Assembly (NCBI GenBank): GCA_035496135.1
Contig: DATJEX010000040.1
Location: 1 to 48,080 of the forward strand
Direction of reading: 5' to 3'
Length of the DNA: 48,080 nt
From: Bacteroidia bacterium
Lineage (GTDB): Bacteria; Bacteroidota; Bacteroidia; Palsa-965
Below are positions 23,626-42,918 of this stretch, one piece after another (position 1 is the stretch's first letter; the number at the start of each line of letters is the position of its first letter). The notes beneath the pieces were generated by a model that saw only the letters and a list, made by a program, of their open reading frames with translations, did no database searches and was not told the origin of the DNA. The position numbers and the translations under genes are program-made.

Positions 23626-24906
23626 TTAACTGCGTTTGTGCTTGAAGAGTTCTGCTTCGTATGTTTTGATATCTATTTCCACATTATCATGATAATAGTA
23701 GCAGCTTCCCCACCAGTATTGTTCCATCCGGAAGATCGTGCGTATTCCTCCCGGCCAGCTGATGACCGTAGATTTCACATCGCGGAAAAATCCATCATCC
23801 GTTGTTTCCACGATATTCGGTGACGGTGCGTAACTCATATTGGTGTATGCGATCACGGGTTTCAGCTGGCTTGCACGGATGTCTCGTTCAACAAGTGCGG
23901 CAGTGGTGATGAGATCTTTGATCGCTGATTCTTTCACTTGTTTGTTCGCGAGCGTCTGTCGTGCTCTTTCTTTCTGCTGTTCGATCAGGAATGCGCTGAG
24001 TGCTTTTACTTCGGCTTCGCGACGCAGGATGGTGACGACGGTGTTCCCTTCCGCGTCTTCCTTCAGCTTGTTGTATTTCTTGATGTTGGTGGCGCGTTCA
24101 CTTTCCGCCACGAGTTTGAGCAGGTTATTCTCATACTCCGCGCGGATATTCTTGTTCTGCTTCTCCCGCGTAAGGCGATCCTGTTTTTCCTTTTCCAGCT
24201 GAATGGCGTCGGTGGTCACGACAGGTTGTGCATCGTCGGTTGTGGAGGTAGTGGTAGCGCTCTGGTCATTGGCTTTGTTTCTCGCGTCTTCGGCTGCGCG
24301 CGCACGGTCATCCGCTTCCTGCTGCAAACGCAAACGTTCCGCTTCGTCTATTCTCGCCTGCTCTTCGGCCTGCAACCTCGCTTTGTCTTCGGCCAGTTTT
24401 CTCGCTGCTTCCTGCTGCTTGAGCAATTCATCATTCGGATCCTTGAAGATCTCGTCTATGAAACGGTACGTTGGATCGTCGTGAAATCCTTTACTTCCGT
24501 CAAAAACAACTTTGATGAATGGTTTCTGCGAGAAAAGCTGCGTATTCACTTTCGGATCGGCCGAAGTGAAAAAAGGGATCTCGGCAACATAATCGGGATA
24601 GATCCAGGCTTTATCCGCTGGCACGTTCAGGTCCATGGTCATATACATCGGCACACATCCGAGCGCTGAATAATTGATCGTGTACGTGTGTCCAAGATCG
24701 ATGGTGAATTTGAATTTGCCGTTCTTGCCCGTTGTGAGATTGATGATCTGCTTCCCGTCCATGAGCACGCTCACATTCGCTCCGGAAAGCGGGCTGCCGT
24801 TGAAAGTGGCGGTGCCGAAAAAGCGCATGTCGCCCTGTGCCCTTGCAATGAAAGTTGCCAGGCCAAGGATTAAAACCAGGATATTTTTCCGGAATAACGG
24901 GCTCAT
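23626..24906 (-). CDS. Hypothetical secreted protein with a carboxypeptidase-regulatory-like N-domain and a Q/E/A/R-rich coiled coil
   Basis: Start set at the ATG at 24906, which gives a signal peptide (MSPLFRKNILVLILGLATFIARAQG). The GTG at 25026 would overlap marC. Confidence 0.55.
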   Translation of the reverse strand: MSPLFRKNILVLILGLATFIARAQGDMRFFGTATFNGSPLSGANVSVLMDGKQIINLTTGKNGKFKFTIDLGHTYTINYSALGCVPMYMTMDLNVPADKAWIYPDYVAEIPFFTSADPKVNTQLFSQKPFIKVVFDGSKGFHDDPTYRFIDEIFKDPNDELLKQQEAARKLAEDKARLQAEEQARIDEAERLRLQQEADDRARAAEDARNKANDQSATTTSTTDDAQPVVTTDAIQLEKEKQDRLTREKQNKNIRAEYENNLLKLVAESERATNIKKYNKLKEDAEGNTVVTILRREAEVKALSAFLIEQQKERARQTLANKQVKESAIKDLITTAALVERDIRASQLKPVIAYTNMSYAPSPNIVETTDDGFFRDVKSTVISWPGGIRTIFRMEQYWWGSCYYYHDNVEIDIKTYEAELFKHKRS

Positions 24907-25002: not shown

Positions 25003-25010
25003 TACCTTTG
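25003..25010 (+). promoter_or_regulatory. Bacteroidota -7 promoter box TACCTTTG
   Basis: Exact TAnnTTTG match, 18 nt upstream of the marC ATG. Confidence 0.4.
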
Positions 25011-25028
25011 TTTTCGCCTTATTCACCG

Positions 25029-25625
25029 ATGATCCTGAAATTCGATATCAAAGAAATAGCCACGGCAACCATGGTGTTGTTTGCCGTGATCGACGTGGTC
25101 GGTTCCATCCCTGTCATCATTGGCCTGCGGCAGAAAGTGGGCGAACTCAATTCGGAGAAAGCTTCGGTCGTTTCTTTCTTCATCATGATCGGTTTCCTTT
25201 TCATCGGTAAACCCATGCTCAATCTTATCGGCATCGAAGTTTCCGATTTCGCGATCGCGGGATCGTTCGTGCTTTTCTTTCTTTCGCTGGAGATGATCCT
25301 TGGTATCCGCCTGTACAAGGACGAAGTTCCTTCCACAGCTTCGGTCATGCCGCTTGCCTTTCCGCTCATTGCCGGAACAGGAACACTCACCACGCTGCTT
25401 TCACTCCGCGCCGATTATAATATTCTCAGTATCGTGATCGCTATCTGCATTAACGTGATCATCGTTTATTTCACGCTGAAGAATATTTCACGGCTCGAAA
25501 AATTCCTGGGCGTTGGAGGTGTTGCCATTCTCCGCAAAGTATTCGGCATTGTATTGCTGGCCATCGCGGTAAAACTTTTCCGCACCAATCTCATTGAGCA
25601 TATGCATATGCTTCCGGCGAAATAG
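25029..25625 (+). CDS. marC: MarC family (UPF0056) integral membrane protein
   Basis: About 198 aa with six hydrophobic segments. The N-terminal pattern FAVIDVVGSIPVI is typical of MarC. Confidence 0.7.
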   Translation: MILKFDIKEIATATMVLFAVIDVVGSIPVIIGLRQKVGELNSEKASVVSFFIMIGFLFIGKPMLNLIGIEVSDFAIAGSFVLFFLSLEMILGIRLYKDEVPSTASVMPLAFPLIAGTGTLTTLLSLRADYNILSIVIAICINVIIVYFTLKNISRLEKFLGVGGVAILRKVFGIVLLAIAVKLFRTNLIEHMHMLPAK

Positions 25626-25685
25626 GGAAGTTCCCGGGACTAATTCTCTTCCGCTCCATTCGTTCTCATTAAACGCAGCGTTGTT

Positions 25686-28193
25686 ATGGATTGCGCTTCT
25701 GATCAGCTGGAACAACTGTATCGTGAACTCCGGAGTTCCCCTTCGGGACTGACGACTTCGGAAGCGAATGAACGATTGCGGGAACTCAGCGGAAAAAAAC
25801 ACACACGGGGAAGACGGACACGGGAATTTCATCTGCTCATCCGCCAGTTCAGGAGTCCGCTCGTTCTGCTTTTACTGGTCGCGGTACTGCTCTCCGGCAT
25901 CATGGGCGAAACGACCGACATGTTCATCATTCTCGGAATTCTCATCACGACGGGCTTATTGAGTTTCATCCAGGAATTGAATGCGGGACGATCGGTGGAG
26001 AAACTGCAGCAGATGCTTGCCGTTACGGTTGATGTAATGCGTGATGGAAGGATCAAAAAACTGAAGAGCGACGATGTCGTTCCGGGAGACATTCTCGAGT
26101 TGAATGCAGGTGATCTCATTCCCGCCGATTGCAGGATCATCAGCAGTAAAGAACTGCACGTGAATGAAAGTTCGCTCACCGGTGAATCATTTGCCGTGGA
26201 AAAAAGTGAAGGTGAAGTGAAACACAGTGCTTCCATCGCTGAAAAAACGAACAGCCTCTGGAAAGGAACGCACGTCATCAGCGGGACAGCTAACGCGATC
26301 TGTGTTTTTACCGGCGACAAAACCATTTTCGGGCAAATGAAAAGTTCGCTCGAAACCGAAGAGGAAACTGTTTTTGAAAAAGGCATCCGGCATTTCGGAA
26401 TGTTCCTGCTCAAGATCACACTCGTGCTCTCCGTTTGTATTCTCATCATCAATATTATTTTTCATAAACCGATCGCGGATTCCATTCTCTTTTCACTCGC
26501 GGTAGCCGTAGGAATGGCCCCGGAATTATTGCCCGCGATCATGACACTCTCCATGACCGCCGGGGCAAAACGGATGCTGCGGAAGAAAGTGATCGTCAAA
26601 AAACTCACATCCATCATCAACTTCGGTGAAGTAACCGTGTTGTGCACCGATAAAACCGGAACGCTCACAGAAGGAATTTCACACGTGAGTAAGATCGTGG
26701 ATGCCGATGGAAAAGAAGATCCCGAAATGTACCGGATGGCGAAACTGAATGCGACGCTTCAGAATGGTTTCAACAACCCGATCGACGATGCATTGCAGAA
26801 ACTCGGTGAAGATATTTCCGGCTACACTAAATGCGGAGAGATCCCTTATGATTTCAAGCGAAAACGGTTAAGTATCCTGGCGGAGAAAGGTTCCTCCTAC
26901 ACGATGATCACCAAGGGAGCGGTCATCAATGTGCTGGAGGTCTGCACGAGTTATTTTTCGGCGAAAGAGATCCGCACACTGGGAAAAGATGATGTGGAAC
27001 GCATCAACAACCGTTTCCGCGAATACAGTGAGAAAGGTTTTCGGGTGCTCGGGCTCGCGTACAGGAATTTCCCGGCCGGGAAAATGACAAAGGCGGATGA
27101 AAAAGAAATGATCTTCCTCGGTTTCATTCTCCTCGAGGATCCGCTGAAGGAAGGAGTACTTCATTCGCTCGAGCGTTTGAATAAACTGAATACTTCGCTC
27201 AAGATCATCACCGGCGACAACCGCCATGTGGCCGCTTACACTGCAGCTGAACTCGGATTCCATACCGGGGAGATCCTGCTCGGAAGTGAGATCGCCGCGC
27301 TGTCACCCGAAGCGCTGAAGGTGAAAGTAAAACAGATCCAGGTTTTCGCCGAAGTGGAACCGCAGCAGAAAGAACATATCATACGCGCGTTGCAGCAATC
27401 GGGCGAAGCGGTCGCGTACATGGGCGATGGCATCAATGATGTCGCCGCGATTCATGCTGCGGACACCGGCATTTCGGTGAATGACGCGGTGGATGTGGCG
27501 AAAGAAGCCGCCGATTTTGTGCTGCTCGAAAAAGATCTTTCCGTTCTGGCCGATTGAATCACAGAATGAAGAAAAACTTTTGCGAATTCACTCAAGTACA
27601 TTTTCATCAGTACCGGCGCGACATTCGGTAATATGTTCAGCGTGGCAGGTGCTTCACTGCTCATTCCGTTTCTGCCCATGCTGCCGAAACAGATCCTGCT
27701 CACGAATTTCATCACCGATTTTCCATACCTCGCAGTATCGGACGACAACGTGGATGAAGCTCAACTGCGAAGGCCGAGTCGATGGGATCTGAAAATGGTC
27801 CGTCGCTTCATGCTTGTTTTTGGTCTGCACAGCTCCATTTTCGATCTGCTCACTTTCTTCTATCTTTTTTTCGTACTTCATCTGAAAGAAGCAGCTTTCC
27901 AGACCGGCTGGTTCCTCGAATCGGTGATCACCGAACTCATCATTTTATTCGTGATCCGTTCGGCACGCACATTCCTGAAAAGCAAACCTTCTCTTTTCCT
28001 TGTGCTCTCCGCGACATTAATGACCGCGTTCACACTCCTGCTCATCTATTCCCCGCTTGCCGGAATGTTCGGTCTGCAGCAATTGCCTTTGATGCAATTC
28101 CTGGTCATTACCGGAATACTTGTGTTGTATCTGATCACCGCAGATATACTGAAAATATTTTTCTTCCGTTACATGGCCAAACAGACTACCTGA
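25686..28193 (+). pseudogene. mgtA: MgtA-type Mg2+-transporting P-type ATPase interrupted by two in-frame TGA codons (27555-27557 and 27567-27569)
   Basis: P-type motifs TGES, DKTGTLT and GDGINDVAA are present. ORFs 25686-27557 and 27633-28193 are in the same frame. The bridging sequence reads D*ITE*RKTFANSLKYI, which is colinear with MgtA EEGVIEGRRTFANMLKYI (recalled from memory). Confidence 0.8.
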
Positions 28194-28346: not shown

Positions 28347-29894
28347 GTGAATATCTACTCACGCAAACAACAATGGAAACTGTTACTGCTCGTAACAGCG
28401 CTCGTCATTGTAGGCCTTTCACTCTGGTATTCCAGTGGGCTCGTACATAAGATCTCGGTGAGTGAAAAACGCAATGTGGAATTGTGGGCCGACGCCGTGC
28501 GGAGAAAAGCGATGATGCGTGAAGCGACGAATCAGTTGTACGCACGCATCGCATCTGAAGAACGGAAGAAAATGGAAGTGTGGGCCGAAGCTACCGGACT
28601 CATGTCCGACCCGGTGATCATTGGCAATAACAACGCATTCACACTCGTGCTCGATGTGATCAAGAACAACGAAACGGTCCCGGTGATCGTGCTCGATGAT
28701 AAAGGGAATTATTTCACTTCGCGGAATCTCGATTCGGCACTGCAGAAAGACAAGAGTTATATCAGGGCCGAACTGGAAGTGATGCGCAAACAGCATGATT
28801 CCATTCCGATCGATGTGAGCAACCGCATGAACGATCCGCACGCACCGGCGCAATTCTACTATCTCTTCTACCGCGACTCAAAAGTTTTTGATGACATCCG
28901 CGAATCGTATGTGGAGAATGAACGTTCGTTCATCCGCGAGGTTGCTTCGAATCCCGCTTCTGCTCCCGCCATCTTCGCCGATTCCTACGCCGACACCGCT
29001 CACATCATCGCGTTCGGAAATCTTGATTCGGTACGATTGAAAAGAGATTCGCTGAATTACCTGCGCGAAGAATTGAAATACCTCAAGGAGAACGGCGACA
29101 CGATCATCATCACGTTCAACAACAGGAACAGCAATGTGATCTATTATATGGAATCGCCGCAACTGCAGAAGCTGCGTTACTTCCCCATCTTTCAATTTGT
29201 CATTGTGGGAATGTTCCTCATCGTCGCGTATTTATTATTCAGTACATCGCGCCGCGCCGAACAGAATAATGTGTGGGTGGGAATGGCGAAGGAGACTGCA
29301 CATCAGTTGGGAACTCCGCTTTCATCACTCATCGCCTGGCTGGAATACATGAAACTGAAAGGTGCGAATGACGAGATGACGAAAGAGATCGCGCACGATG
29401 TGAAGCGACTTGAGATGATCACCGAACGTTTTTCAAAGATCGGTTCGCAACCGAAACTTGATTACACCGACATTGTTGAAGCGCTCCGTAATTCGGTGGA
29501 ATATATCCAGACCCGTTCACCGAAGACCGTGAAATTCCATATGAAAGCGGAAGGAAAAATCGAAGTGCCTTTGAATTTCCCGCTCTTCGCATGGGTGATC
29601 GAAAATCTTTGCCGCAATGCGGTGGATGCGATGGACGGAAGCGGAGAGATCACCGTCGAGATCACCGATCTCTACCAGTTCGTTTACATCGACATCACCG
29701 ATACCGGCAAAGGAATTCCACGCTCAAAACAGAAAACAATTTTCGAACCGGGATTCACCACGAAACAACGCGGCTGGGGACTCGGCCTTTCATTGTGCAG
29801 GAGGATCATCGAGCAATATCACAATGGAAAAATTTTCGTGAAAAGATCGGAACCGGGAAAAGGAACAACGTTCAGGATCGTGCTGAATAAATAG
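28347..29894 (+). CDS. Sensor histidine kinase (two TM segments, HisKA, HATPase_c)
   Basis: H-box (AHQLGTPLSSLIAWLEY), N-box (ENLCRNAVDAM), G1 (DTGKGIP) and G2 (GWGLGLSLC). GTG start at 28347. Confidence 0.85.
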   Translation: MNIYSRKQQWKLLLLVTALVIVGLSLWYSSGLVHKISVSEKRNVELWADAVRRKAMMREATNQLYARIASEERKKMEVWAEATGLMSDPVIIGNNNAFTLVLDVIKNNETVPVIVLDDKGNYFTSRNLDSALQKDKSYIRAELEVMRKQHDSIPIDVSNRMNDPHAPAQFYYLFYRDSKVFDDIRESYVENERSFIREVASNPASAPAIFADSYADTAHIIAFGNLDSVRLKRDSLNYLREELKYLKENGDTIIITFNNRNSNVIYYMESPQLQKLRYFPIFQFVIVGMFLIVAYLLFSTSRRAEQNNVWVGMAKETAHQLGTPLSSLIAWLEYMKLKGANDEMTKEIAHDVKRLEMITERFSKIGSQPKLDYTDIVEALRNSVEYIQTRSPKTVKFHMKAEGKIEVPLNFPLFAWVIENLCRNAVDAMDGSGEITVEITDLYQFVYIDITDTGKGIPRSKQKTIFEPGFTTKQRGWGLGLSLCRRIIEQYHNGKIFVKRSEPGKGTTFRIVLNK

Positions 29895-36706: not shown

Positions 36707-37672
36707 ATGTCATACATCCGTCCGAAATTCCGTCACCCTGAATTGCCGAAGAATAAACTCGGCTATACAGTGGACAAATACGAAGGTTCGCTCTCTACAC
36801 TCTGTGCAGGATGCGGACACGATTCGATCAGTGCGGCGATCGTGCAGGCTTGCTTTGAATCGAATATTGAACCACACCGTCTCGCAAAAATGTCGGGCAT
36901 CGGTTGTTCTTCCAAAACTCCTGCGTACTTCCTGAATAATTCACACGGATTCAATTCTGTTCACGGACGTATGCCTTCCGTGGCGACAGGTGCGAATCTC
37001 GCGAATCGTGATCTCATTTACTTCGGAGTTTCCGGTGACGGAGATACCGCGTCTATCGGCATGGGACAATTCGTTCACGCCGTTCGCCGTAACCTGAACA
37101 TGGTTTACATCGTGATGAACAACGGTTGCTACGGTTTGACCAAAGGGCAGGATTCTGCAACAGCCGATGCAGGTTCTAAAAGCAAAGCCGGATCTGTCAA
37201 TGAATTCCAGCCGATCGATCTCGCAAGTCTTGCACTTGAACTTGGTGCTTCGTTTGTCGGCCAGAGTTTTTCCGGCGACAAAACACAACTCGTTCCGCTC
37301 ATCAAAGCAGCGATCAAGCATAATGGATTTGCGTTCCTGAATGTGATCTCTCCGTGCGTAACGTTCAACAACAACGTTGGTTCAACAAAGTCATACGATT
37401 ACGTTCGCGAACACATCGAAGCGACAGGCACAGTAGATTTTGTTCCGGATGCAAAGACGATCACCGCGAAATACGATGAAGGAACAGTTGCGAATGTCAC
37501 CATGCACGACGGTACGATCCTCCAGCTGCACAAACTTGCAAAAGGTTGGGATCCATTCGATCGTCTTTCGGCGATCAACGCTGTACAGACCGCACGTTCG
37601 AAGGGAGAAATTCTTACCGGCCTTCTTTATGTGAATGAAGAATCAACGGAGTTGCATCAGCTGCTCGGTTAA
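36707..37672 (+). CDS. korB: 2-oxoglutarate/2-oxoacid:ferredoxin oxidoreductase beta subunit (TPP-binding); possibly truncated by a TAA at 37670-37672
   Basis: CAGCGHDSI and the TPP motif GVSGDGDTASIG. It begins 1 nt after the korA stop. Confidence 0.85.
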   Translation: MSYIRPKFRHPELPKNKLGYTVDKYEGSLSTLCAGCGHDSISAAIVQACFESNIEPHRLAKMSGIGCSSKTPAYFLNNSHGFNSVHGRMPSVATGANLANRDLIYFGVSGDGDTASIGMGQFVHAVRRNLNMVYIVMNNGCYGLTKGQDSATADAGSKSKAGSVNEFQPIDLASLALELGASFVGQSFSGDKTQLVPLIKAAIKHNGFAFLNVISPCVTFNNNVGSTKSYDYVREHIEATGTVDFVPDAKTITAKYDEGTVANVTMHDGTILQLHKLAKGWDPFDRLSAINAVQTARSKGEILTGLLYVNEESTELHQLLG

Positions 37673-42767: not shown

Positions 42768-42818
42768 CGATTCGACCACTGCTAAAATCCGTTCATTGAC
42801 GAAAATCAGAAAATATGA

Positions 42819-42918
42819 ATTGTGGCGTGCCGGACCAATACGGAAATCGGCATTGTGGGAAACAGCGGCGGTACGCGAACTGAGAGAGCAGGCGGAGGTA
42901 TTTGCCAGGCGGTTCGGA
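42819..42918 (+). pseudogene. Relic copy of the last 33 codons of the FAD oxidoreductase gene (homologous to 39081-39180)
   Basis: Gap-free 100-nt alignment at about 80 percent identity. Translation WRAGPIRKSALWETAAVRELREQAEVFARRFG versus WCIGPMRKSALWETTAIRELREQAEEFAKRF*. Many differences are synonymous. Confidence 0.8.

Follow-up and report, generated by a model that had tools for sequence, protein, structure and literature searches.

Two TGA codons, 12 nt apart, interrupt the reading frame of a gene for an MgtA-type Mg2+ P-type ATPase in a GenBank MAG (3.75 Mb, 437 contigs, 89.6% complete), and both stand where homologues have glycine. The tmRNA tag GESNYALAA and the names of the best protein hits place the MAG in an uncultured Bacteroidota (Bacteroidia) bacterium. 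The locus raises the question of whether UGA is read as sense in this organism, whether the gene has just been lost, or whether the two bases were introduced with the assembly. A sequence-only reading of the window, which is the whole 48,080-bp contig (C40) analysed here, had left these three explanations side by side. We compared the locus with the nearest relatives, with a second assembly from JGI/IMG and with the rest of the MAG, and we weigh the explanations below in the order in which they survive.

Two in-frame TGA codons in an otherwise intact mgtA

The mgtA frame and its immediate neighbours on the window are as follows, where G012 denotes the sister species that carries the nearest orthologue.

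25008..25625, + strand: MarC-family membrane protein, upstream neighbour; context marker common to the JGI contig and G012
25686..28193, + strand: full frame of the MgtA-type Mg2+ P-type ATPase, 835 codons if both internal TGA are sense; identified by TIGR01524, Pfam and the syntenic G012 orthologue
25686..27557, + strand: N-terminal piece, 623 aa; PF00690, PF00122, PF00702 and PF13246
27555..27557, + strand: first in-frame TGA, at the site of invariant Gly624; GGG in G012, Gly in the JGI/IMG protein
27567..27569, + strand: second in-frame TGA, at the site of invariant Gly628 in the EGR motif; GGA in G012, Gly in the JGI/IMG protein
27633..28193, + strand: C-terminal piece, 186 aa, cation-ATPase C-terminal membrane domain; PF00689, 86 bits
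28191-28193, + strand: terminator of mgtA itself, TGA
28347..29894, + strand: histidine kinase, downstream neighbour; context marker common to the JGI contig and G012

The two pieces belong to one gene. As first described, ORFs 25686-27557 and 27633-28193 (623 and 186 aa) share one frame, and the bridge between them is gat TGA atc aca gaa TGA aga aaa act ttt gcg aat, or D-stop-ITE-stop-RKTFAN in translation. The 835-aa read-through scores 719.3 bits against TIGR01524 (Mg-translocating P-type ATPase, type IIIB), for which the curated cut-off is 610.75 bits. The P-type motifs CTDKTGTLT, ITGDN and GDGINDVAA are present in the translation and all fall on invariant columns of an alignment of 65 homologues. 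In the same alignment both TGA codons fall on glycine columns, G624 and G628, which are Gly in 65/65 sequences, so that the correspondence of both stops with glycine is borne out. The 623-aa piece covers the membrane segments before TM5 together with the actuator, phosphorylation and nucleotide-binding domains, and the ATG of the 186-aa piece lies within a conserved membrane region just past the stops and is therefore not a natural start. No M-box or other riboswitch was found 5' of mgtA (25626-25685), and the window has no Rfam hits.

Relatives carry glycine codons at both sites. The G012 gene, which is syntenic, shares 82% amino acid and 76% nucleotide identity with the MAG gene. The suggestion that a close relative might show GGA at both positions holds for the second site only, as the G012 codons are GGG and GGA, although both encode glycine. 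A further relative, G022, also has Gly codons where the MAG gene has TGA, and within the MAG gene itself 21 other GGA codons are unaltered.

A second assembly of the same strain

The uninterrupted single-polypeptide frame, absent from mgtA of the GenBank MAG, is present in a JGI/IMG assembly. By exact-sequence look-up, the 623- and 186-aa pieces, which NCBI alone contributes to the protein collection, fall in a cluster with a single other protein, an 835-aa JGI/IMG product that is letter-identical to the mgtA read-through with TGA translated as Gly at both sites. Its gene lies on a 49,835-bp contig of JGI sample 3300045391, and the neighbours on that contig match the window in order and family around mgtA (MarC, 198 aa; SpoIIE-type regulator, 1088 aa; a 466-aa protein; histidine kinase, 478 aa; DUF1761 protein, 144 aa; aldehyde dehydrogenase, 480 aa). 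The 1088-, 466-, 144- and 480-aa products equal the corresponding window ORFs in size, whereas MarC and the kinase are 205 and 515 aa in the window ORF list, where different starts were called. The 466-aa window ORF has a GTG start.

The neighbouring genes of the JGI contig end where table 11 ends them, which requires GGN at both sites; the codons are deduced from the called protein, and the comparison is made at protein level. A further 11 window proteins, with 5,453 aa in total, match letter for letter between NCBI and JGI, and the two are therefore assemblies of one strain. The sequence-only reading had held that reads with GGA at both sites would indicate an assembly error, and the glycines of the JGI product come close to this, although they are taken from a called protein. 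The double TGA is thus private to the GenBank MAG, and the JGI product shows that at least one assembly of the strain has an intact mgtA. A search with a 29-nt pattern, in which both TGA sites were given as N, gave no match in genome and metagenome contig collections, where near relatives may be absent.

Linkage of the two stops and absence of decay

The two mgtA changes are unlikely to be independent. There are 256 single-base paths to a nonsense codon in the gene and only two of them lie within four codons of codon 624, so that chance alone would place an independent second nonsense change this near the first in about 0.8% of cases. We conclude that the two are linked, through one event or one source.

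The remainder of mgtA shows no decay, as had been noted from the sequence. The gene is free of frameshifts, and dN/dS against G012 is low on both sides of the stops (0.057 before and 0.045 after, with synonymous sites saturated). Lineage-specific residue changes number 28 in the MAG and 21 in G012; past the stops there are 6 and 5, respectively, all conservative. A decaying pseudogene is rejected on these grounds.

Other differences private to the MAG

Interrupted genes are rare in this genome. We compared the MAG genome (G000) with 1.97 Mb of G012 over 861 orthologue pairs and 346,122 aligned residues. Only three genes in this set, namely mgtA, an M16-family peptidase and korB, have a stop within the gene and conserved sequence beyond it. 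No convincing frameshift-split gene was found in the same set, the five candidates being short ORFs of ~200 aa with low identity, and the few defects of the MAG in this comparison are substitutions only. A genome-wide flood of errors or pseudogenes is rejected by the same counts. The remaining stop-bearing candidates of the G012 comparison are 5' extensions or shadow frames without Pfam matches. In intrinsic split-gene scans, nearly all other candidates resemble abutting genes, a few are single-stop cases with a distant ATG, and mgtA is a clear outlier among double stops.

The TAA of the M16-family peptidase at G000:C208:3574-3576 stands opposite GAA in G012 and is followed by 76 intact codons, and the JGI protein P0125 equals the MAG frame but has Glu at the stop site and runs to full length. 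This TAA is thus a second G-to-T nonsense change that only the MAG has. In korB, which encodes the 2-oxoacid:ferredoxin oxidoreductase beta subunit, TAA at 37670 stands opposite ACA in G012 and is followed by 28 G012-like codons up to 37758; it could be a third recent nonsense change, or the gene may naturally end earlier here. The JGI copy of korB was looked up with each of the six possible residues at the TAA and none matched, the likely reason being a break of the JGI contig somewhere in the region of about 32 to 38 kb of the window.

Differences between the two assemblies are few and one-sided. In a 1245-aa sensor kinase, Tyr561 (TAC, 2452-2454) of the MAG is Phe in both JGI and G012, and this is the only missense difference between NCBI and JGI in ~7,500 compared residues. 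All four comparable differences between the assemblies are transversions derived in the MAG, and none is derived in JGI. Three of the four are nonsense and are G-to-T on the coding strand, and the Phe-to-Tyr change is T-to-A.

A third TGA/GGA correspondence, which had been placed beside the mgtA stops, proved to be unrelated to them. The 3' end of the FAD-oxidoreductase gene (to 39180) is 84% identical to a displaced copy near 42916, with the live TGA opposite GGA. The live gene ends in KRF and a stop like its G012 orthologue, which places the GGA in the decaying displaced copy, where it is a decayed stop codon, one of many substitutions in a relic gene end, and no sign of glycine decoding. 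Separately, the segment 39181-44216, which holds a sulfur-handling module and a DUF4143/AAA_14 ATPase gene, is missing from the G012 contig, which is otherwise collinear, and is thus an insertion relative to that species; it includes the relic gene end (~42815-42918).

Consensus error or recent allele

A double nonsense mutation and a sequencing or assembly artefact are the two explanations of the sequence-only reading that survive, and it is very probable that one of them accounts for the locus. Its third option, readthrough or recoding, fails against regular TGA terminators, the presence of prfB, the uniqueness of the double TGA and the sequences of relatives. The two TGA codons are G-to-T substitutions private to the MAG, and we infer, at a probability of about 0.5, that they are most likely a consensus error, having arisen in sequencing or assembly rather than in cells. 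The mgtA of the organism would then be an ordinary intact 835-codon gene with Gly codons at both sites. TGA acts as an ordinary terminator in this bacterium, with no special decoding. G-to-T is the signature of 8-oxoguanine damage, and where coverage was thin, reads of a single template that was oxidatively damaged or duplicated could have put both T's on the same molecules.

A consensus error is favoured because the differences between the assemblies are one-sided, all of them derived in the MAG, because all are transversions and rich in G-to-T, because two changes of the same type are clustered, as expected from one template strand, and because the nonsense hits fall in perfectly conserved genes, with no decay in mgtA. 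The locus is also similar in kind to the residual substitution errors and strain-variant paths of MAGs, in which an isolated stop likewise interrupts a constrained gene in one assembly only, is contradicted by another assembly and arises by G-to-T. Unlike the typical internal-stop error of a MAG, mgtA has two stops 12 nt apart, and a true minority allele is possible. Three further points weigh against a consensus error. A De Bruijn k-mer path needs several reads, so that linked errors would require duplicated or systematically miscalled reads. The Phe-to-Tyr change (T-to-A) is not of the 8-oxoguanine type. In addition, the hits fall in two dispensable genes, mgtA and the M16 peptidase, and spare every essential gene among the 861, a pattern that real knockouts would also show.

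A real and very recent loss-of-function allele is the strongest rival, and we rate it a serious possibility at somewhat under even odds. One multi-nucleotide event would have changed both GGA624 and GGA628 to TGA in the subpopulation or sample behind the MAG, for example through error-prone synthesis past two oxidised guanines on one strand, and other cells of the strain, represented by JGI, would keep the intact gene. The 623-aa stump lacks PF00689, which is part of the ion pathway in P-type ATPases, and would therefore be non-functional. Both changes fit within one k-mer and would thus be linked on several assembled reads, which favours a real allele. The mgtA gene is dispensable here, and the genome also encodes intact CorA (230 bits) and MgtE (372 bits). 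The gene is also patchy in the genus, where MgtA-like relatives (E below 1e-100; 82, 55, 38 and 45-52% identity) were found in about 4 of the 24 other members searched. Unpurged nonsense and missense differences are known between very close strains, and the M16 peptidase would be a second private nonsense allele, again in a dispensable gene. Against a real allele stand the Gly residues at both sites in the only other assembly of the strain and the fact that every private difference is derived in the MAG. A set of differences that are all transversions and three-quarters nonsense is unusual for natural polymorphism, and multi-nucleotide events are a small minority of spontaneous mutations.

Young nonsense pseudogenes or loss-of-function alleles of accessory transporters in bacteria offer a close biological parallel. 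They too arise by a single-base route from GGA to TGA, affect dispensable genes with backups such as CorA and MgtE, and are often absent in congeners. Unlike them, mgtA is free of any decay, its two hits are linked, and an intact allele exists elsewhere in the same strain.

The state of oxidative repair in the genus bears on the real allele as well. No match to Fpg/MutM (TIGR00577) was found in the six genus genomes G000, G002, G004, G006, G012 and G022, five of which are 97-100% complete. An absence of Fpg could raise in vivo G-to-T rates and so speaks for a real allele; 8-oxoguanine may be repaired by other means in the genus. A mutator state through loss of fpg was considered and rejected, because Fpg was found in none of the six genomes and its apparent absence is thus not specific to the MAG. 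The mutY gene of G000 is present but cut by a contig end (C430:4-615). Gene conversion, template switching and a quasi-palindrome were likewise rejected, as the genome holds no donor and the local hairpin does not predict the T's.

Termination at UGA in this genome

Local recoding or programmed readthrough is very improbable. UGA would be decoded as Gly, as in genetic code 25, or would be read through at a useful rate to give the full-length pump, perhaps as an expression brake. What recommends such decoding is that both stops replace glycine and that the downstream frame is intact. Termination in the MAG speaks against it. The 1,027 ORFs of at least 400 codons comprise 388 that end in TGA, 390 in TAA, 173 in TAG and 76 that run off contig ends, so that TGA closes 388 of the 951 that reach a stop; it also terminates 243 of the 619 MAG genes whose ends coincide with those of their G012 orthologue, and mgtA itself. 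At 24,629 aligned Gly positions of G012, the MAG has TGA at five, two of which are the mgtA sites; the other three fall at the normal end of a gene or in 5' extensions that are not translated. This scarcity and the unaltered GGA codons of mgtA both argue against UGA as a glycine codon. Release factor RF2 (prfB) is present and stop-free (485.5 bits against a 370-bit cut-off).

Comparative searches gave no further instance of the double stop. It was not found in G012, G022, other relatives or the JGI assembly, all three of the named sequences having glycine instead, and the degenerate pattern DFVL..E..L.V...[TGA]..E[TGA]R occurred in none of the genomes of 185,579 species. Conserved programmed readthrough is rejected on this evidence. 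Local RNA structure at the stops did not exceed shuffled controls (z = 0.45), no SECIS-like hairpin was found there, and the best match to the SelB model reached 95 bits against a cut-off of 242; selenocysteine is rejected by these results and by homologues that have Gly rather than Cys or Sec. Near-cognate readthrough of UGA in bacteria inserts Trp at low rates, and Trp would not be tolerable at two invariant Gly positions.

The tRNA inventory of the MAG comprises 19 tRNA genes and one tmRNA (tag GESNYALAA). No tRNA with anticodon UCA was found among these 19, a set that is without any tRNA-Gly and without tRNA-Trp. So small an assembled set leaves room for a tRNA with anticodon UCA, which is a point in favour of recoding, and it renders tRNA-based decoding arguments uninformative for this MAG.

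The mgtA locus lacks each assessable hallmark of genetic code 25, of selenoproteins and of conserved tolerated stops. Genetic code 25, in which UGA is Gly, is found in Gracilibacteria and Absconditabacteria (PMC4032931, PMC8629427), and the lineages with UGA as Gly are without RF2 (PMC8629427). The likeness is that UGA stands where homologues have glycine. Code 25 lineages have lost RF2, do not terminate at UGA and carry in-frame UGA throughout their genes, whereas in the MAG RF2 is present, UGA is a common stop and only two codons are affected. A global change of UGA to Gly is rejected for the MAG because TGA is a regular terminator, prfB is present and the genome has no other double TGA of this kind. 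Belinky et al. 2021 (PMC7918605) propose that readthrough allows prokaryotes to tolerate certain in-frame stops in genes that are otherwise intact, and base this on stops conserved across related genomes. Their proposal lends recoding some support, and their interrupted genes share low dN/dS with mgtA. Unlike their conserved stops, the mgtA pair occurs neither in G012 nor in the JGI assembly.

As the cause of the two stops, a peculiarity of how this organism translates is excluded by these results. The faintest chance is left to a single subpopulation that decodes both UGA as Gly or reads through them, for example by means of an unassembled and possibly phage-borne suppressor tRNA-Gly(UCA), with the pump throttled as a result. 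If true, this would be UGA-to-Gly decoding confined to particular sites, in a lineage outside the Candidate Phyla Radiation.

Implications for the magnesium-uptake repertoire

The mgtA locus is a caution against reading a new decoding rule from one assembly. Two UGA codons on invariant glycines in a gene with no decay form a recoding-like pattern, and this pattern vanishes with a second assembly of the same strain. At least one further private G-to-T nonsense change is found in the MAG, and isolated internal stops in this genome are therefore best treated as unverified. If the allele is real, it would be a minor case of an accessory transporter knocked out by clustered G-to-T changes. The mgtA stops are a base error or a private knockout variant, ordinary in kind, and not a new reading of the code. 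Annotation pipelines would call mgtA a pseudogene or two genes, and would thereby understate the magnesium-uptake repertoire of the species representative.
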